Assembly (NCBI RefSeq): GCF_004010195.1 | Contig: NC_057754.1 | Coordinates: 279,012-308,593 of the forward strand | Direction of reading: 5' to 3' | DNA length: 29,582 nt | Origin: Chiloscyllium plagiosum | Lineage: Eukaryota | In this document: positions 379 to 29,582 of the stretch, one piece after another | Layout: each line of letters opens with the position of its first letter | Numbering within the stretch: the first letter of the stretch is position 1 | The notes under the pieces: model-generated | What the model was told of the DNA's origin: nothing | Database searches by the model: none | Seen by the model: the letters and a program-made list of their open reading frames with translations, nothing else | Position numbers and translations under genes: made by a program

Positions 379-690
379 GGGCGGCACAGTGGCACAATGG
401 CTAGCACTGCTGCCTCACAGCGCCAGAAACCCGGGTTCAATTCCCGCCTCAGGCGACTGACTGCGGGGAGTTTGCATGTTCTCCCCGTGTCTGCATGGGT
501 TTCCTCTGGGTGCTCCGGTTTCCTCCCACAGTCCAAAAATGTGCAGGTCAGGTGAATTGGCCATGCTAAATTGCCCGTAGTGTTAGGTAAGGGGTAAATG
601 TATGGGTGGGTTGCGCTTCGGCAGGTCGGTGTGGACTTGTTGGGCCGAAGGGCCTGTTTCCACACTGTAATGTAATCTAATCTAATCTAA
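379..690 (+). mobile_element. HE1-like V-SINE (tRNA-derived head, V domain, CR1-derived tail)
   Basis: A box TGGCACAATGG, B box GGTTCAATTCC, V-domain GGAGTTTGCATGTTCTCCCCGTGTCTGCATGGGTTTCC...TCCGGTTTCCTCCCACAGTCCAAA, tail GGGCCGAAGGGCCTGTTTCCACACTGT followed by (AATCT)n. Confidence 0.92.
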
Positions 691-9591: not shown

Positions 9592-10320
9592 AAATGCTGA
9601 AGCCTTCTGTATTTCATTTGAAAAATTGGCTAGGTAGATGGAGTGGTCTAAGGATTTAAGGGTAATGCTAGTTCCGACTAAACTGGTAGGCAGTTTAATA
9701 GCTAGTGAAGTATTTGCTGCACTGTCAGATGAGGTGTCAAGAGATTATGAAGACGGTTAAACAGGCTATTTTAACTGCTTATGAATTGGTACCAGAAACA
9801 TATAGACAATGGTTCAGAAACACGAATAAGGAACTAGGTCAGACTTATGTTGAGTTCGAAAGAATTAAAGGTAGTCGCTTTAATCGATGGGTACATGCTT
9901 TGAAAATAGATAAGAAGTTTGAGACTCTAAGTGAGATTATTCTGCTGGAGAGTTTTAAAAACTCACATGGTAAGAACTCGTGTGGAGGAACAGAAAGTTC
10001 ATGAAGTGAGAAGGACAGCAGAATTAGCAGACGAGTACATGTTGGTGCATAAGACAAGCTTTTAATTTTGTCCTGTGAAGGATAGAAATTGGCAGAAAGG
10101 GAGATCCTACACTACTAAACCAAGAGTAGATCGCACTGATAAGAATTTACCACAGAATAAAAAAGAAGCCCAAGAGGGTGGAAAGGAGGTGAAAAGCTTC
10201 TCATGTTTCTGCTGTGGTAAAGTGGGACACGTAAAGTCACAGTGCCAGTCATTAAAGAAAGGCGCGGTGGGAAAAGATGTGGTAAAAGAAGCTAAGCCAG
10301 TGGCATTAGTGAAGGTAGTA
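9592..10320 (+). mobile_element. Gypsy LTR-retrotransposon gag fragment (Gmr1-like, SCAN-related capsid + CCHC zinc knuckle), frameshifted
   Basis: EAFCISFEKLA..MEW...KLVG..ASEVFAALSDEVSRDYE / VKQAILTAYELVPETYRQWFRN...LSEIILLESF; zinc knuckle CFCCGKVGHVKSQC at 10204-10245. Confidence 0.82.
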
Positions 10321-10490
10321 CAGAACTGCAGCCTCACAGCGCCAGGGACCCGAATTCGATTCCAGCCTCAGGCATCTGTGTGGAGTTTACACATTCTCCC
10401 CGTATCTGCATGGGTTTCCTCTGGGTGATCCAGTTTCCTCCCACAATCCAAAGATGTGAAGGTTAGGCGAATTGGCTATGCTAGATTGTC

Positions 10491-10583
10491 GCTGAAAATG
10501 TGTTGCTGGAAAAGCACAGCAGGCCAGGTAGCATCCAAGGAACAGGAGAATCGACGTTTCGGGCATGAGCCCTTCTTCAGAAA
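10491..10583 (-). mobile_element. 93-bp Penelope-terminus mini-insert with perfect 16-bp TSD
   Basis: GCTATGCTAGATTGTC at 10475-10490 and 10584-10599. The insert is nearly identical to 29495-29579. Confidence 0.9.
10553..10580 (-). ncRNA. Minimal hammerhead ribozyme core (Penelope-type, short palindromic stem III)
   Basis: Minus strand CUGAAGA-A-GGGC(UCAU)GCCC-GAA-ACGU-C: all core residues present. The native 5' strand of stem I was lost at the insertion junction. Confidence 0.65.
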
Positions 10584-10829
10584 GCTATGCTAGATTGTCT
10601 CAGTGTTCAGGGATGTGTAGGTTAGGGGTAAATGTAGAGTAATGGGGAATGGCTTTAGGTAGGATACTCTTTGGAAGGTCGGTATGGACTTGCGGGCCGA
10701 AGGGCCTGCTTCCATGCTGTAAGGGATTCTAATTCTAAAGAAACATACAGTAAATTTTTAAAGCAGTCCCGACTGCAGTCACAACTAATCAGGAAGTTAC
10801 TATGGGAAATAGACTAACAACAAGCAGAC

Positions 10830-12685: not shown

Positions 12686-13107
12686 CTCTCGCCTCGGATT
12701 CTGCCTTGCTGAGCGTCGAGCAGTAATGAGTGCTAATCGCCTCGGCTTGCTGCCTGAAACTGGTGAACATTTAGGGAAAATGGATTTTGGGCTACTGGCA
12801 TCGAGTGGGGAAATAAGACTGACCAGATTGTTGGACAGATAACTAGGACATACTCAATAGGTCAAACTGCCTTCACCTGTGCCAAAATGACTCAAAGATC
12901 TGTGAATTATGAACCAATAAAACAACAGAAGACAGGGAGCAAGGTAAGTTTAGTTTTTAAATCCAGGTTAACAACAAAAACTTTTAGCAATGAGCAAAGT
13001 GCGGAAATGAATCTCTAAATACAATAAAGTCTCAGTCTATCCTGGGGTTGTGGAGCTCAGGCAATGTAGCAGCTGGGAAAGGATGCTTCATGTACATAGT
13101 GGCATCA

Positions 13108-13259
13108 ACCAAAATGGAAATTGCTGAAGAAACTCAGCTAGTCTAGCAACATCTTCAGTTCTGAAGGAGGATCACTGGACTCAAAACAGTAACTCTGCTT
13201 TTTCTCCACAGATGCTGCCAGACCTGCTGAGTTCCTCCAGCAATTTCTGTTTTTGTTTG
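13108..13259 (+). mobile_element. Partly palindromic Penelope-terminus mini-element (second subfamily) with decayed hammerhead
   Basis: Inverted arms GAAATTGCTGAAGAAACTCAGC / GCTGAGTTCCTCCAGCAATTTC. AGTT-CTGAAGGA-GGATC(ACTG)GACTC-AAAACAGT-AACT at 13157-13194 keeps stem I (AGTT/AACT) but has a mutated core. Confidence 0.7.
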
Positions 13260-14807: not shown

Positions 14808-15317
14808 AGACGTGGCTATAACATGACATGAATTGGGATCTGAATACTGTAGAATATGGAATATTTTGGAAGGAGAAGAAGCTAGCGTAAGGTGGAGTGA
14901 TGGCTTTGTTAGTTAGTGATATTAGCACAATAGGAGTCCAAGTTTAACAAACCAGGATGTGGAAATGGTTCGAGTTGAGATAAGATAAAGACAAGAAGTC
15001 ACTCGTGGGAGTGGTATACAGGCCCCTGACAATAACCATATGGTAAAGTGGAGCCTAAAGGAAGAAATAATGGGAACCTTTCATGAAGGCACAAGAATTA
15101 TAGGAGAATTTATATACAGATTTAAAAATTCAAATGTGCAAAGGGTAAGATGAGGAGTGCATAGAATGCTTTCAGGATAGTTTTTAGAACCACAAGTTCT
15201 GGAGTCCACCAGGAAGCAAGCTATTATAGACCCATTGTTATACAACAAGATACGATTACTTAATGTCAGGATTAATTAATTGAGAACACAAACAATATTC
15301 CAGAATTAACTATATAT

Positions 15318-17073
15318 CAGGGTGTGAAAGGGGAGAAAGGGAGGGAAGTTAAGAAACATATAAAGTTAAAAGAGAAAAAATATAACATAGCAAAGATAAG
15401 TGGGAAAACTGAGGACTGGGAGGTTTTAAAAGAGCAACAGAGGATTACTAAGAAGGAAATACGCAGAGGAAAAATGAGGTACGAAGGTAAACTGGCCAAT
15501 AATATTAAGGAGGATAGTAAAAGCTTTTTTAGGTATGTGCAAGGCAAAAAAATGGTTAGGACAAAAATTGGGCCCTTGAAGACAGAAACAGGGGAATATA
15601 TTACTAGGAACAAAGAAATGGCAGAGGAATTAAATGGGTACTTCAGATCTGTGTTCACTGGGGAAGACACAAGCAATCTCCCTGAGGTAACAGTGACTGA
15701 AGGACCTGAACTTAAGGGAATCTATATTTGCCAGGATTTGGTGTTGGAGAAACTGTTAGGTCTGAAGGTTGATAAGCCTCCGGGGCCTGATGGTCTGCAT
15801 CCCAGGATACTGAAGGAGGTGGCTCGGGAAATCGTGGATGATTATTTGGTGATTATTTTCCAGAGTTCAATAGATTCCGGGTCGGTTCCCGAGGATTGGA
15901 GGGTGGCTAATGTTATAACCTGGACTTTCAGAAATCTTTTGATAAAGTCCCACACAGGTGGTTAGTGAGTAAAATTAGGGTGCATGGTATTGGGGGCAAA
16001 GTACTAGATTGGATTGAAAATTGGTTGGCTGATAGGAAACAAAGGGTAGTTATAAACGGCTCCATTTCGGAATGGCAGGCCGTGACCAGTGGGGTACCGC
16101 AGGGATCTGAGCTGGGACCGCAGCTTTTTACAATATATGTTAATGATATAGAAGATGGTATTAGTAATAACATTAGCAAATTTGCTGATGATACAAAGCT
16201 GGGTGGCAGGGTGAAATGTGATGAGGATGTTAGGAGATTACAGGGTGACCTGGACAAGTTAGGTGAGTGGGCAGATGCATGGCAGATGCAATTTAATGTA
16301 GATAAATGTATGGTTATCCACTTTGATGGCAAGAACAGGAAGGCAATTTACTAACTCAATGGAATCAATTTAGGTAAAGGGGCAATACAGAGAGATCTGG
16401 GTGTTCTTGTATACCAGTCAATGAAGGCAAGCATGCAGGTCTTCATAACAAGAGGAATTGAGTAGAGAAGCAAAGAGGTGCTTCTGCAGCTGTACAGGGC
16501 CCTGGTGAGACCACACCTGGAGTAGTGTGTGCAGTTCTGGTCTCCAAATTTGAGGAAAGACATTCTGGCTATTGAGGGAGTGCAGTGTAGGTTCACGAGG
16601 TCAATTCCTAGAATGGCGGGATTACCTTACACTGAAAGACTGAAGCGACTGGGCTTGTATACCCTTGAGTTTAGAAGACTGAGAGGGGATCTGATTGAGA
16701 CATATAAGATTATGAAAGGATTGGATACTCTGGCAGCAGGAAACATGTTTCCGCTGATGGGGGAGTGCCGAACCAGAGGACACAGCTTAAAAATATAGGG
16801 TAGACCATTTAGAACTCAGATGAGGAGAAGCTTCATCACCCAGAGAGTGGTGGCTGTGTGGAATGCTCTGCCCCAGAGGGCAGTGGAGGCCCAGTCTCTG
16901 GATTCATTTAAGAAAGAGTTGAATAGAGCTCTCAAGGATAGTGGAATCAAGGGTTATGGGGATAAGGCAGGAACAGAATACTGATTAGGAATGATCAGCC
17001 ATGATCATATTGAATGGCGGTGCAGGCTCGAAGGGCTGAATGGCCTACTCCTGCACCTATTGTCTATTGTCTA
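15318..17073 (+). mobile_element. Younger 5'-truncated CR1 LINE (ORF2 RT pseudogene + 3'UTR)
   Basis: ORFs 15324-15965, 15965-16354 (SGVPQGS, KFADDTK) and 16529-16798; internal deletions at about 15917 and 16440; tail (CTATTGT)n. Confidence 0.93.
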
Positions 17074-18012: not shown

Positions 18013-20848
18013 GGTTGAGAGTAGGGAGGTCCGAAATCAAGTTTCAGGGACACAAGATGGCACCGGCAAGCACTTGGTTTGAAGTGTGTCTACTTCAACA
18101 CCAGGAACATTAAAATAAGGTGGGTGAATTTGCAGCATGGGTTGGTACCTGGGACTTCGATGTTGTGGCCATTTCGCAGACATGGATAGAGCAGGGACAG
18201 GAATGGTTGTTGCAAGTTCCAGGATTTAGATGTTTAGTAAGAACAGAGAAGATGGCAAAAGTGGGGGAGGTGTGGCATTGTTGGTCAAGGACAGTATTAC
18301 AGTTGCAGAAAGGATGTTTAGGGTCTTGTCAACTGAGGTAGTATGGGCCGAGGTTAGAAACAGAAAAGGAGAGGTCACCCTGTTGGGAGTTTTCTATCGG
18401 CCTCCGAATAGCTCCAGAGATGTACAGGGAAAGGATAGCAAAGATGATTCTCGATAGGAGTGAGAGAGACAGGGTAGTTGTCATGGGGGACTTCAACTTT
18501 CCAAATATTGACTGGGAACACTACAGTACAAGTACTATAGATGGGTCAGTTTTTGTCCAGTGTGTGCAGGAGAGCTGCCTGCCCCTTGTTGGCCAGAATG
18601 TAGACTGGCCAACAAGGGGCGAAGCCACATTAGATTTGGTACTGGGTAATGAGCCTGGCCAGGTGTTAGACTTGGAAGTAGGTGAGCACTTTGGTGATAG
18701 CGATCACAATTCTGTTATGTTTACTTTAGTGATAGAAAGGGATAGGTGTATACCACTGGGCAAGAGTTCCAGCTGGGGGAAAGGCAATCATCATGCAATT
18801 AGGCAAGATTTAGGAAACATAGGATGGGGAAGGAAACTGCAGGAGTTGGGCACATTAGAAATGTGGAGCTTATTCAAGGAAAAGCTCCTGTGTGTCCTCG
18901 ATTAGTATGTACCTGTCAGGCAGGGAGGAAGCTGTACAGCGCCGTGGTTTACGAAGGAAGTGGAATCTCTGGTCAAGAGGAAGGCGGCGGCTTATGTTAG
19001 GATGAGATGTGAAGGCTCAGTTAGGGCGCTTGAGGGTTACAAGGTAGCCAGGAAAGACCTAAAGAGAGGGCTCAGAAGAGCCAAGAGGAAACATGAGAAG
19101 TTGTTGGTGGATAGGATCAGGGTAAACCCTAAGGCTTTCTATAGGTATTTAAGGAATAAAAGAATGATGAGAGTAAGATTAGGGCCAATCAAGGATAGTA
19201 GTGGGAAGTTGTGTGTGGAGTCAGAGGAGATAGGGGAAGCACGAAATGAATATTTTTCGACAGTATTCACTCTAGAAAACGACAATGTTGTCGAAGAGAA
19301 TACTGAGATACAGGCTACTAGACTAGGTGGGATTGAGGTTCACAAGGAAGAGGTATTAGAAACCCTGCAGAGTGTAAAAATAGTCAAGTCCCTTGGGCCA
19401 GATGGGATTTATCCTAGGATCCTCTGGAAAGCCAGGGAGGAGATTGCCGAGCCTTTGGCATTGATCTTTAAATCATCATTGTCTACAGGAATAGTGCCAG
19501 AAGACTGGAGGATAGCAAATGTGGTTCCCCTGTTCAAGAAGGGGAGTAGAGACAACCCAGGTAATTATAGACCAGTGAGTCTTACTTCAGTTGTTGGCAA
19601 AGTGTTGGAAAAGGTTATAAGTGATAGGATTCATAATCACCTGGAAAAGAATAATTTGATTAGGGATAGTCAGCATGGTTTTGTAAAGGGTAAGTCGTGC
19701 CTCACAAACCTTATTGAGTTCTTTGAGAAGGTGACCAAACAGGTAGGTGAGAGTAAACCGGTTGATGTGGTGCATATGGATTTCAGCAAGGCGTTCAATA
19801 AGGTTCCCCACAATAGGCTATTGTACAAAATGCGGAAGAATGGAATTGTGGGAGATATGGCAGTTTGGATCAGTAATTGGCTTGCTGAAAGACGACAGAG
19901 GGTGGTGGTTGATGGGAAGTGTCTATCCTGGAGTCCAGTTACTAGTGGTGTACCGCAAGGGTCAGTGTTGGGTCCACTGCTGTTCGTCATTTTTATAAAT
20001 GACCTGGATGAGGGCGTAGAAGGGTGGGTTACTAAATTTGCAGACGACACTAAGGTCAGTGGAGTTGTGGATAGTGACGAAGGATGTTGTAGGTGATTCA
20101 CTTTGGTCGGAGTAACTGGAATGCAAAGTACTGGGCTAATGGTAAGATTCTTGGTAGTGTAGATGAGCAGAGAGATCTCGGTGTCCATGTACACAGATCC
20201 TTGAAAGTTGCCACCCAGGTTGACAGGGTTGTTAAGAAGGCATACAGTATTTTAGCTTTTATTAATAGAGGGATCAAGTTCCAGAACCATGAGGTTATGC
20301 TGCAGCTGTACAAAACTCTGGTGCGGCCGCACTTGGAGTATTGTGTACAGTTCTGGTCACCGCATTATAAGGAGGATGTGGAAGCTTTGGAAATGGTGCA
20401 GAGGAGATTTATCAGGACATTGCCTGGTATGGAGGGAAGGTCTTATGAGGAAAAGCTGAGGGACTTGAGGCTGTTTTCGTTAGAGAGAAGAAGGTTGACT
20501 TAATAGAGACATATAAGATAATCAGAGGGTTAGATAGGGTGGACAGGGAGAGCCTTTTACCAAATATAGTGACGGCGAGCACGAGGGGGCATAGCTTTAA
20601 ATTGAGGGGTGATAGATACAGGACAGATGTCAGAGGTAGTTTCTTTACTCAGAGTAGTAAGGGTATGGAATGCTTTGCCTGCAACGGTAGTAGAGTCGCC
20701 AACTTTAAGTACATTTAAGTCATTATTGGACAAGCATATGGACGTACATGGAAAAGTGTAGGTTTGATGGGCTTCAGATTGGTATGACAGGTCTGCAACA
20801 TTGAGGGCCGAAGGGCCTGTACTGCGCTGTGATGTTCTATGTTCTATA
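18013..20848 (+). mobile_element. Younger CR1 LINE with nearly complete ORF2 (APE endonuclease + RT), frameshifted
   Basis: GGGVALLVK, GVFYRPP, MGDFN, LDLVL, SDHN (EN); ORF 18960-20096 has [33 protein letters not shown] (RT); tail (ATGTTCT)n; ATA duplicated at 18010-18012 and 20846-20848. Confidence 0.95.
18960..20096 (+). pseudogene. CR1 reverse transcriptase domain (378-aa open stretch of a broken ORF2)
   Basis: Core RT motifs are present, but there is an upstream stop at 18903-18905 and a frameshifting deletion at about 20093. Confidence 0.9.
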
Positions 20849-23059: not shown

Positions 23060-24319
23060 TTAGATGAGAATATAGAAGGCATGGTTAGTAAGTTTGCAGA
23101 TGACATCAAGTTTGGTGGTATAATGCACAGTGAAGAAGGTTATCGACAATTACAAAGAGATTTTGATCAATTGGGTCAATGGGCTGAGCACTGGCAGATG
23201 GAGTTTAGATTAGATTCCATACAGTATGGAAACATGCCATTTGGCCTGACAAGACCACACCGGCCCTCCGAAGAGTAAAACACGCAAAGCCATTCCCCTA
23301 CATTTACCCCTGACTAATGCACTTAACACTATGAGCAATTTAGCATGGCAAATTCACACTAACCTGCACATCTTTGGATTGTGGGAGGAAATCAGAACAC
23401 CCGGAGGAAACCCACGCAGACACGGGGAGAATGTGCACACTCCACACAGACAGTGGCCCGAGGGTGGAATCGAACCCACGGCGCGGACAGGCAGCAATGC
23501 TAACCACTGAGCCACCATGCCACCCAATTTGCAATTTGGACAAATGCAAAGTATTGCATTTTGGTAAAACAAACAAAGGCAGGATTTATACAATTAAAAG
23601 TAGGGCCTTGAGCAGTGTTGTAGAACAGTGAGATCTAGGGGTTCAGGTACATAACTCTTTGAAGTTTGCATCACCTATAGATGGGTGATTAAGGCAGCAC
23701 TAAGAACACTTGCTTTTATTGCTCACACCTTTCAGTATGGAAGTTAGGATGTCATATTGAGGTTGTACAGGACGTTGGTGAGACCTTGCCTTGAATACTA
23801 TGTCCAGTTCGGGATGCCCTGCTATAGGAAGAATACGATTAAGCTGAAGAGGGATCAGAAGAGATTTACCAGGATATTGCTCGGAACGGAGGTTTGAGTA
23901 ATGGGGAGAGGCTGGGACTTGTTTCACTGGAGCATAGGAGGTTGAGAGGTGACCTTATAGAGATTTATAAAATAACGAGAGGTACAGATGAGGTGAATGG
24001 CAGGTATCCTTTCCCTAGGGTGGGGAATTTCAAGACTAAGGGGCATATTTAAAGTGAGAGGAGAAAGATTTAAAGACGAGGGGCAAACTTTTTTTACACC
24101 AAGTGTGGTTCGAGTGTGGAATGTACTGCCAGAAGAAATAGTGGATGAGAGTACATTTACAATGGTTAAAAGATATTTAACTAAGTACATGAATAGGAAA
24201 GGTTTGGAGGGATATGGGCCAAATGCAGACAGATTGGACTAGTTTAGTTTGGGATTATGGTCAGCATGGACTAGTTGGACTGAATGGTCTGTTTCCGTAC
24301 TGTCTAATTATGAATGCAT
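23060..24319 (+). mobile_element. 5'-truncated CR1 LINE, interrupted by an antisense V-SINE
   Basis: MVSKFADDIKFGG...WQMEF | NLDKCKVLHFGK; FFTPSVVRVWNVLP; tail GGACTGAATGGTCTGTTTCCGTACTGT. Confidence 0.9.
23207..23525 (-). mobile_element. HE1-like V-SINE
   Basis: Reverse complement starts GGGTGGCATGGTGGCTCAGTGGTTAGCATTGCTGCC, with B box GGTTCGATTCC, V domain and (AATCT)n tail; homologous to 379-690. Confidence 0.9.
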
Positions 24320-27245: not shown

Positions 27246-27507
27246 GAAAGAAGTTGGAGTCACTACATAAGAAAGAGGAGAAGCCATTTTTTTTTGTCTA
27301 CCTGCAGCCCCTGACCCTGAGGCTCAAAATAATGTGGCCTTTCCCCAATTAACTCCACAAAAATAACTGAGAACATCTTCAGGTTGCTATAAGGACTGAC
27401 CTGTTTCATTAACACTTGACAGCGAAGGCAGCTATTCACCTCTGCCTGCACTGACACTGTCCTACATTACACGAGCTACTCAACAATCACTTCAGATCTT
27501 CCATCAT

Positions 27508-28677
27508 CTGGATGTAGGTTTGCTCACTGAGCTGGAAGGTTCATTTCCAGACGTTTCATCACCCTCATAGGTAACATCTTCAGTGGGCCTCAGGCGAAGC
27601 ACTGTACATTGACTCCTACATTCTATTTGTGTGTTTGGGTTTATTTGAGTTGGTGAAGTCATTTCCTGTGGTGATGTCATTTCTTGTCCTTTTTCTCAGG
27701 GAGTGGTAGATGGGGTCTAACTCGATGTGTTTGTTGATAGACTTCCGGTTGGAATGCCATGCTTCTAGGAATTCTCGTGCGTGTCTCTGCTTGGCTTGTC
27801 CTAAGGTAGATGTGTAATCCCAGTCGAAGTGGTGTCCTTCCTTATCTGTATGTAAGGATACTAGTGAGAGAGGGTCATGTCGTTTTGTGACTAGTTGATG
27901 TTCATGTATCCTGGTGGCTAGTTTTCTACCTGTTTGTCCAATGTAGTGCTTTTTACAGTTCTTGCACGGTATTTTGTAAATGATATTAGTTTTGCTTGGT
28001 ATCTGTATAGGGTCTTTCAAGTTCATTAGCTGCTGTTTTACTGTGTTGGTGGGTTTGTGGGCTACCATGATGCCCAGGGGTCTGAGTAGTCTGGCAGTCA
28101 TTTCAGAGATGTCTTTGATGTAGGGGAGAGTCGCTAGGGTTTCTGGATGCGTTTTATCTGCTTGTTTGGGTTTGTTGCTGAGAAATCAGCGGACTCTGTT
28201 CATTGGGTATCCATTCTTTTTGAATACACTGTATAGGTGATTTTCCTCTGCTCTGCGTAGGTCCTCTGGGCTGCAGTGTGTGTTGGCTCATCAAAATAAT
28301 GTTCTGATGCAGCTTGGTTTGTGAACGTTGGGATAACTGCTTTGCAGTTCAGTATTTGGTCTGTATGTATTGTTTGCCTGTAGATGCTGGTTTGAAGTTC
28401 CCCATTGGCTGTGCGATCTGCTGCAACGTCTAGGAGTGGCAGTTTGTTGTTGTTTTTCTCCTCTTTAGTGAATTTTATGCCAGTAAGGGTATTATTGATG
28501 GTCTTGAAGGTTTCCTCTAATTTGTTTCGTTTAGTGATGACAAAGGTGTCATCCACGTAGCAGACCCAAAGCTTGGGATGGATGGTTGGCAGGGCTGTTT
28601 GTTGAGTCTCTGCATAACTGCCTCTGCTAAGAACCCGGATATCGGAGAACCCATGGATGTTCCGTTGGTTTGTCTGC
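27508..28677 (-). mobile_element. Penelope-like element (Poseidon-like): RT C-half + GIY-YIG endonuclease + 3' end with hammerhead; pseudogenised
   Basis: RT GTSMGSPIS, LWVCYVDDTF, IKFTKE, LPLLDV; EN NIIYKIPCKNCKKHYIGQTGRKLATRIHEH...REFLEAWH...INKH (ORF 27616-28101). Confidence 0.93.
27547..27586 (-). ncRNA. Minimal type I hammerhead ribozyme in the Penelope 3' terminus
   Basis: Minus strand CCA-CUGAAGA-U-GUUACC(UAUGAG)GGUGAU-GAA-ACGU-C|UGG: stem I CCA/UGG, stem II 6 bp with 2 G.U pairs, palindromic ACGU stem III. Predicted cut between 27550 and 27549. Confidence 0.75.
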
Positions 28678-28812
28678 AAGTACCATGCAAGAACTGTAAC
28701 AAACACTACATTGGACAAACAGGCAGAATACTAGCCACCAGGATAGATGAACACCAACTAGCCACAAAACAACATGACCCTCTCTCACTAGTATCCTTAC
28801 ATACAGATAAGG
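28678..28812 (+). mobile_element. Inverted partial copy of the Penelope GIY-YIG region
   Basis: PCKNCNKHYIGQTGRILATRIDEHQL; reverse complement of about 27840-27972, with about 9 substitutions counted by eye. Confidence 0.9.
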
Positions 28813-29494
28813 GATAGCATTACAGCTGTGCTGAGGGAGGATATTCCCGGAAATACATCCAGGGAAGTTATTTGGGTGGAACTGAGAAATAAGAAAGGGA
28901 TGGTCACCTTATTTAGATTGTATTATAGACCCCCCAGTAGTCAGAGGGAAATTGAGAAACAAACTTGGAAGGAGATCTCAGCTATCTGTAAGAATAATAG
29001 GGTAGTTATGGTAGGGGATTTTAACTTTCCAAGCATCGACTGGGGCTGCCATAGTGTTAAAGGTTTAGATGGAGAGGAATTTCTTAAGTGTGCACAAGAC
29101 AATTTTCTGATTCAGTATGTGAATGTACCTACTAGAGAAGGTGCAAAACTTGACCTATTCTTGGGAAACAAGGCAGGGCAGGTGACTGAGGTGTCAGTGG
29201 GGGAGCACTTTGGGGCCAGCGACCATAATTCTATTCGTTTTAAAGTAGTGATGGAAAAGGATAGACCAGGTCTAAAAGTTGATGTTCTAAATTGGAGAAA
29301 GGCCAATTTTGACGGTATTAGGCAAGAACTTTCGAAAGCCAATTGGAGGCAGATGTTCGCAGGTAAAGGGACGGCTGGAAAATGGGAAGCCTTCAGAAAT
29401 GAGATAACAAGAATCCAGAGAAAGTACATTCCTGTCAAGGTGAAAGGGAAGGCTGGTAGGTATAGGGAATGCTGGATGACTAAAGAAATTGAGG
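28810..29494 (+). mobile_element. CR1 ORF2 endonuclease region (5'-truncated, open frame)
   Basis: ORF 28828-29571: IWVELRN, LYYRPP, VGDFNFP, LDLFL, SDHN, WMTKEIE. Confidence 0.92.
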
Positions 29495-29582
29495 TGAAAA
29501 ATGTGTTGCTGGAAAAGCGCAGCAGGTCAGGCAGCATCCAAGGAGCAGGAGAATCGACGTTTCGGGCATAAGCCCTTCTCCT
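29495..29582 (-). mobile_element. Penelope-terminus mini-insert with partial hammerhead, running off the window edge
   Basis: Near-identical to 10494-10577. Minus strand AGAA-GGGC(UUAU)GCCC-GAAACGUC (29556-29579), with CUGA replaced at a junction. Confidence 0.85.

Follow-up and report, generated by a model that had tools for sequence, protein, structure and literature searches.

A short Penelope-like insert in a shark SINE, probably copied from the capped 5' end of an element RNA

The insert and its surroundings

The window, meaning the whole 29,582-nucleotide stretch of Chiloscyllium plagiosum DNA that was analysed, contains at 10321–10735 on the plus strand an older SINE of the tRNA type, whose ends are approximate and whose tRNA-like head is partly lost. 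We take this SINE to be of the HE1/V-SINE kind. The HE1 SINE exists in sharks (PMC4824008). The SINE carries in antisense orientation a 93-bp insert (10491–10583, minus strand), and an earlier note on this DNA had claimed that a perfect 16-bp target-site duplication (TSD) surrounds it. This was confirmed, as all 16 bases of the left copy (10475–10490) match those of the right copy (10584–10599), and the bases flanking the repeat are unlike on both sides. Across the whole window, the probability that a 16-mer is repeated by chance at a distance of no more than 200 nt is about 0.002. The target is present only once, and the insert is absent, in the two sister SINEs of the window (403–685 and 23204–23474); these are paralogous and not orthologous empty sites. 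An orthologous empty site and a possible polymorphism were also sought in four DNA contig runs (at most three samples of one study), in which paralogs dominated. One contig matched the right junction (10555–10630), reaching 29 nt into the insert and falling short of the bridging rule, and one joined 10490 to 10601 with two letters differing, a joint that is probably a sister SINE. At 10066–10320 on the plus strand there is a short remnant, gag-like and including a CCHC zinc knuckle; the host SINE was apparently inserted there, giving a nesting of three levels.

Positions in the element are numbered from +1, the A of TCATTCC (equivalent to window 10584), which lies four bases before the hammerhead C3 (+5). 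The insert spans +2 to +94 of the leader of a Penelope-like element (PLE) and its 3' end is tail-less. It is a single unit with no tandem array, and the pair of features by which a SINE family is recognised, a Pol III head of its own and fixed ends, was not found, the tRNA-like head being absent. It differs from a natural family copy (L056) at four positions. The perfect TSD and the 96–97% identity to the nearest copies make a recent insertion plausible. A true retro-insertion, as had been proposed, is borne out by a TSD that is typical for the family: with one mismatch and microhomology tolerated in the calling, TSDs of at least 13 nt were found in 49/66 simple or inverted copies (mode 14–16) and in 1/17 long copies. 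DNA-repair filler or a chance repeat was considered as the source of the insert and was ruled out by the family-typical TSD and ends.

Family identity and the hammerhead motif

The insert has matches across the genome at 90–97% identity, and a 27-mer from its 3' part gave 4,685 exact genome matches. In a sample of 19 stretches of 10 kb at even spacing, 186 kb in total, 24 related elements were counted, which extrapolates to about 458,000 family copies per genome. The Penelope origin suggested by the earlier note was upheld by longer sibling copies that continue into RT and GIY-YIG-type coding. In L007, RT coding lies upstream of the module on the same strand; in L027, which is interrupted by another insertion, the corresponding place on that strand is taken by a Cys-rich linker and the first part of a GIY-YIG-type domain; and in L096 an ORF starts past the tail, at about +167. 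The best homologs of the RT fragment are named from carpet sharks and rays, and a scan of four homologs found RVT_1 in all four and GIY-YIG in three of them. When the RT and EN fragments themselves were searched against Pfam and PDB there was no match, so the classification was made via these homologs. No intact full-length copy was seen among the copies examined. The family shows the optional tail of 30–40 nt, the inverted 5' copies and the TSDs of endonuclease-positive (EN+) PLEs, and the insert belongs to the terminal-repeat (pLTR) module of such an element. The Cys-rich linker between RT and EN, a feature of the Neptune clade that is in contrast with Poseidon, aligns in L027 to P0019, and by this linker the family appears Neptune-like; Nematis also has the Zn-finger-like motif between RT and EN (PMC8557442).

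Further copies of the family lie in the window at 116–192 and 29498–29582, both on the minus strand; the latter is 94% identical to the insert, lies within a LINE remnant and is truncated where the window ends. Inverted (fold-back) copies of the same module occupy 1567–1739 and 13107–13257, the second of which belongs to an older subfamily and has a direct arm that begins two bases before the +1 A. A different, Poseidon-like PLE without the Cys linker was found at about 27500–28800 (minus strand), with remnants of a YVDD RT and GIY-YIG domain, its own hammerhead at 27583, whose stem II is longer, and an inverted 5' segment of 135 nt. Broken LINE endonuclease/RT remnants, presumably CR1-like, lie on the plus strand at 15276–16354, 18342–20503 and 28792–29571.

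The minus strand of the insert reads TTT CTGAAGA A GGGC TCAT GCCC GAAA CGTC GATT, and the minimal dimer-type hammerhead motif noticed earlier was confirmed, with the conserved core CUGANGA ... GAAA, U16.1 and H17 all present. By the criteria of PMC4209133 the core spans 10553–10580 and consists of CUGAAGA (10580–10574), an extra A (10573) between A9 and 10.1, stem II (10572–10561) with four G-C pairs including G10.1-C11.1, GAAA (10560–10557) and CGUC (10556–10553). The 3' strand of stem I (GAUU) is at 10549–10552, and the predicted cut falls between 10553 and 10552, that is, after +32. The rest of the leader, 10491–10548, extends to the putative RT start site at +94, which is placed from the 3' ends of family copies described below and from PMC11167929. 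The core, the extra base between 9 and 10.1 and the G10.1-C11.1 pair are as described for the minimal hammerheads in pLTRs of metazoan PLEs, whose stem III is palindromic and loop-less (Cervera & De la Pena, 2014; PMC4209133). A scan of the window against Rfam (E ≤ 5) gave no match, and the hammerhead call therefore rests on the motif and on covariation of stem II across other subfamilies, where the swaps GAGTC/GACTC, AGGT/ACCT and GGGAA/TTCCT were seen; within the young subfamily stem II varies little. In the insert the palindrome ACGU replaces stem III. RNAcofold of two cores gave an intermolecular duplex around ACGU at −24.1 kcal/mol, but the catalytic fold was absent from it, and the minimum-energy folds retained stem II and not the hammerhead fold. 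An upstream ORF of 26 codons (element +19 to +99, window 10566 downwards) begins in hammerhead loop II and is out of frame with the main ORF.

Stem I was compared in 56 cores whose upstream sequence is pyrimidine-rich and mostly native. Pairing was found at positions 1, 2 and 4 in 51/56, 53/56 and 53/56 cores, while position 3, mostly U.U, paired in 7/56 and positions 5–7 in only 3/56, 5/56 and 7/56. Stem I of the family thus appears to stop at the +1 A, as would be required if the RNA begins at +1; a stem I of 4–5 bp is known for PLE minimal hammerheads (PMC4209133). The earlier note had held the native 5' strand of stem I to be missing from the insert, which proved wrong: the native stem comprises just four positions, and three of them (+2 to +4, 10581–10583, minus strand; TTT for native TTC) are kept with one C>T change, so that with the loss of just the +1 A the stem is weakened and not missing. 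Its pairs are G.U, A-U, U.U and then U.C, and the insert is probably a poor ribozyme.

Ends of the family copies

The ends of family copies were mapped at 90 loci, taken in order from the 100 listed matches to the 27-mer, so that nothing but the 3' part entered into the selection. For one inverted pair a single mate was used, and merging of three further inverted pairs left 87 elements, of which 47 were inverted, 19 simple and 15 long, and 6 had masked sequence nearby. The samples are the first matches to exact patterns on contig C1 (C1 and C2 for the older subfamily), by which young copies of one subfamily are over-represented. The 3' ends were bimodal, with 40/87 at 0–9 nt and 44/87 at 32–36 nt beyond +94 (+94 and +130), ends before +94 being invisible with this 27-mer anchor. 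These two ends are the known PLE tail and correspond to the two RT start sites of Poseidon of Anolis carolinensis, where RT initiates internally, 3' of the hammerhead, at two sites that set a tail of 30–40 nt (Frangieh et al, 2024; PMC11167929). The ORF of Anolis Poseidon starts at stem II, unlike the main ORF of the shark family, which starts at about +167, past both RT start sites. In many copies (L053, L055, L059, L065, L067, L074, L077 and others) the TSD shares 1–6 bases with the element just past its 3' end, suggesting microhomology-assisted priming; this sharing is absent in the 93-bp insert.

The 5' ends were counted in 82 copies after removal of five with a masked junction. Eighteen lay at +12 to +67, 47 at −9 to +11, a single one at −10 to −107 and 16 beyond −108, which corresponds to per-base rates of 0.004, 0.064 and 0.0006 for the first three intervals. 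The earlier note had named randomly distributed boundaries as an outcome that would count against its reading; those found are non-random, with a 5' cliff at +1 and two 3' ends. Its description of the insert as an extreme Penelope truncation held in so far as this is a short piece of a PLE, and overlooked that the boundary appears to be a fixed end of the template.

The alternative description as retrozyme-like did not hold, since the insert is a single unit with no tandem array and none of the 82 copies has a 5' end at the cleavage site (+30 to +34; two were at +35). Genome-wide, at most 121 cleavage-site junctions were counted with one pattern, which does not admit a T at the second base ahead of the junction; a control placed 4 nt further downstream gave 56. 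Many of the 30 such loci that were read are fold-back microhomologies or small indels, and an Rfam scan of 20 of the 30 gave no match. The rarity of these junctions indicates that uncleaved RNA is the main template. Uncleaved RNA is also the template of Anolis Poseidon, for which the hammerhead is dispensable for insertion in vitro (PMC11167929). Non-LTR retrozymes (Li, Clavereau & Pollet, 2026; 10.64898/2026.07.22.740005) are similarly derived from PLE pLTRs, carry a type I hammerhead and are present in a chondrichthyan; they consist of tandem units each with a hammerhead, unlike the insert, which is single and does not end at a cleavage site. Natural tandems of hammerheads were seen in L072, L087–L097 and L100, where, after a segment of hammerhead, tail and ORF start of variable length, the sequence returns to the beginning of the hammerhead. 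The hammerheads in these tandems lie 250–550 nt apart (1.5 kb in L096) and could form a dimer, and the tandems are possible seeds of retrozymes.

The base at −1 was analysed for a mark of the RNA cap. Of 53,912 exact matches to +1 to +17, 14,894 (28%) are without the native C at −1, and among the matches listed (n = 100) this base was G in 56, A in 28 and T in 16, with G expected in 26%. At 90 loci among the matches listed, G was present in 30/46 inverted and 21/42 simple copies; in inverted copies the fold-back arm can supply it. When one duplicate and five stutter junctions were removed from the simple copies, G remained in 16/36 (p 0.014). Four of the five junctions made of the TSD, one base and the element start have a G not supplied by the target. 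For the independent simple G junctions, G also occurs within the TSD in 6/20 and 5' stutter could give it in 4/20. The older subfamily (stem I TCAGTT ... AACT) had G in 37, T in 39 and A in 24 among the matches listed (n = 100). In 20 of its loci that were read, five T's were native upstream sequence, and G was found in 11/14 independent junction copies. The sequence at +1, TCA(+1)TT or TCA(+1)GTT, is in our judgement initiator-like in both subfamilies. An extra G at the 5' junction marks the copied cap in full-length L1 insertions (PMC11702581), and the excess of G at −1 in two subfamilies would be expected if the RT copies the cap. As the 93-bp insert begins at +2 and lacks an extra G, the evidence for a cap comes from its sibling copies.

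No RNA data set was listed for the insert locus itself. RNA reads on a sibling copy numbered 2,214 in one run, a polyA single-cell run of which 2% was read, and none in another. Both strands were present in the polyA run and 93% of its reads continue into unrelated sequence. A start peak was sought there, and no place where many molecules begin was found. The read depth shows the same step as the 5' ends, rising at +1 from about 110 to some 750, the reads being mostly from copies embedded in host transcripts.

Origin of the insert and of its sibling copies

We consider it likely that the insert is a retrotransposed piece of a capped leader, made by internal priming near the 5' end of the RNA, run-off at the cap and direct integration. 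Transcription would start at +1 in the initiator-like TCA+1TT or TCA+1GTT. The PLE protein would nick the DNA and prime RT within the 5' copy of the pLTR, at +94 or +130, and RT would reach the cap after 94–130 nt, the G at −1 being a putative copy of the cap. Joining of the cDNA end to the other target end would give a simple insert such as this one; its folding back, inverted copies; and its jump to another RNA site, hammerhead–spacer–hammerhead tandems whose ORF-derived spacers vary. The long copies, about 20%, would stem from RT primed at the 3' copy of the pLTR. The template would be uncleaved RNA and the hammerhead merely a passenger. For the 93-bp insert, RT was probably primed about 94 nt in and its product joined into a staggered break of 16 nt, giving a simple, tail-less product halted one base before +1. 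Being single, antisense to the SINE and terminated at its own priming site, the insert is probably inert and a dead end.

A transcription start inside the pLTR is known for PLEs (PMC8557442, PMC6765202, PMC2377424). In the Penelope of Drosophila the hammerhead comes after an intron, far downstream of the start (PMC4209133, PMC2377424), so the geometry of start and hammerhead is not universal. Full-length L1 insertions are alike in that RT runs to the capped 5' end and leaves one extra junction G (PMC11702581). The product considered here differs from L1 and from the retroviral strong-stop product in being just 94–130 nt long, as follows from internal priming, and in being integrated directly and not transferred. 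In retroviruses, minus-strand strong-stop DNA is made as RT copies the RNA up to its capped 5' end. Complex PLE insertions (Arkhipova et al, 2013; PMC3846280; Craig et al, 2021; PMC8557442) share with the shark family the head-to-head inverted copies (47/87 here), the optional tail, partial tandems, TSDs and an Inr-like pLTR sequence. For the inversions the same papers invoke an antisense template and self-priming, whereas the cluster of junctions at +1 found here suggests 5' run-off on sense RNA; their TSDs peak at 8–10 bp, against 14–16 bp here.

Three other origins were weighed. Ordinary 5' truncation at a structural hot spot, with priming on the 3' pLTR and RT stalling or falling off as it leaves the hammerhead fold, draws on the heavy 5' truncation known for PLE insertions (PMC8557442), on the scatter of ends over +1 to +11 with thinning to +67, and on the start of the insert itself at +2. 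We nonetheless find it unlikely, as a stall would be expected before or inside stem II and not beyond it, ends become about 100-fold rarer upstream of −9, and a stall leaves the single G at −1 in two subfamilies unexplained. Less likely still is a self-propagating, non-autonomous mini-element of about 93–130 nt, retrozyme- or SINE-like, that is transcribed and copied on its own. The very high copy number, the share of short and inverted copies (66/87), the existence of some hammerhead–spacer–hammerhead tandems, and the internal promoter of D. virilis Penelope (PMC2377424), by which +1 copies might be transcribed, would fit such an element. Its copies, however, differ in their ends, with a 5' spread and two 3' ends; the tandem spacers are of unequal length and come from the ORF start, as template jumps would yield; ends at the cleavage site are as rare as described; and the insert, a single unit, stops at the site where it was itself primed, whereas the Anolis PLE needs RNA past that site (PMC11167929).

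We give least credence, and very little, to the idea that the +1 RNA end arises by processing and not by transcription start, with the G supplied by fold-back of cDNA stem I or by untemplated addition of C. Position 1.5 is C in both subfamilies, so that a cDNA stem-I hairpin would add the identical base, and a fold-back junction of this type was found in L174. Continued fold-back predicts A at −2, though, and this was seen in 4/20 simple G junctions against a background of 29%; there is no AG acceptor at −2/−1, and both subfamilies have an initiator-like sequence around +1.

For the population, we lean towards the view that most PLE copies in the genome are integrated strong-stop DNAs: an initiator start four bases before the hammerhead, priming 94 or 130 nt in and copying of the cap, with the fate of the cDNA end building solo, inverted or tandem pLTRs. 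Earlier work has already described PLE hammerheads as well as truncated single motifs, tails and inverted heads. Most metazoan minimal hammerheads occur singly and dispersed, "probably related to truncated PLEs", and some form opposite-strand pairs (PMC4209133); the accessible text of that paper names no sharks, maps no ends of single copies and does not link the short stem I to the RNA start. Likewise, that of PMC11167929 contains neither a map of genomic 5' ends nor an account of cap-marked leader copies for Anolis Poseidon. A search of the literature, which excluded subscription papers, Repbase/Dfam entries and bioRxiv supplements, found no paper on cap-marked PLE leader copies or on this shark family.

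The single locus is ordinary, one of about 450,000 copies, and the mechanism at the level of the population is of moderate interest. The copy population bears on how PLEs form pLTRs, inverted heads and tails, which was called undefined in PMC8557442. Genomic ends and internal priming in vitro together predict exactly where transcription starts and that the base at the junction depends on the cap. There is also a warning here that dispersed hammerhead motifs in sharks may be by-products and not a separate ribozyme family. If the strong-stop reading is true, it would fill a gap in the Penelope cycle and account for the stem I of only 4 bp in minimal hammerheads.
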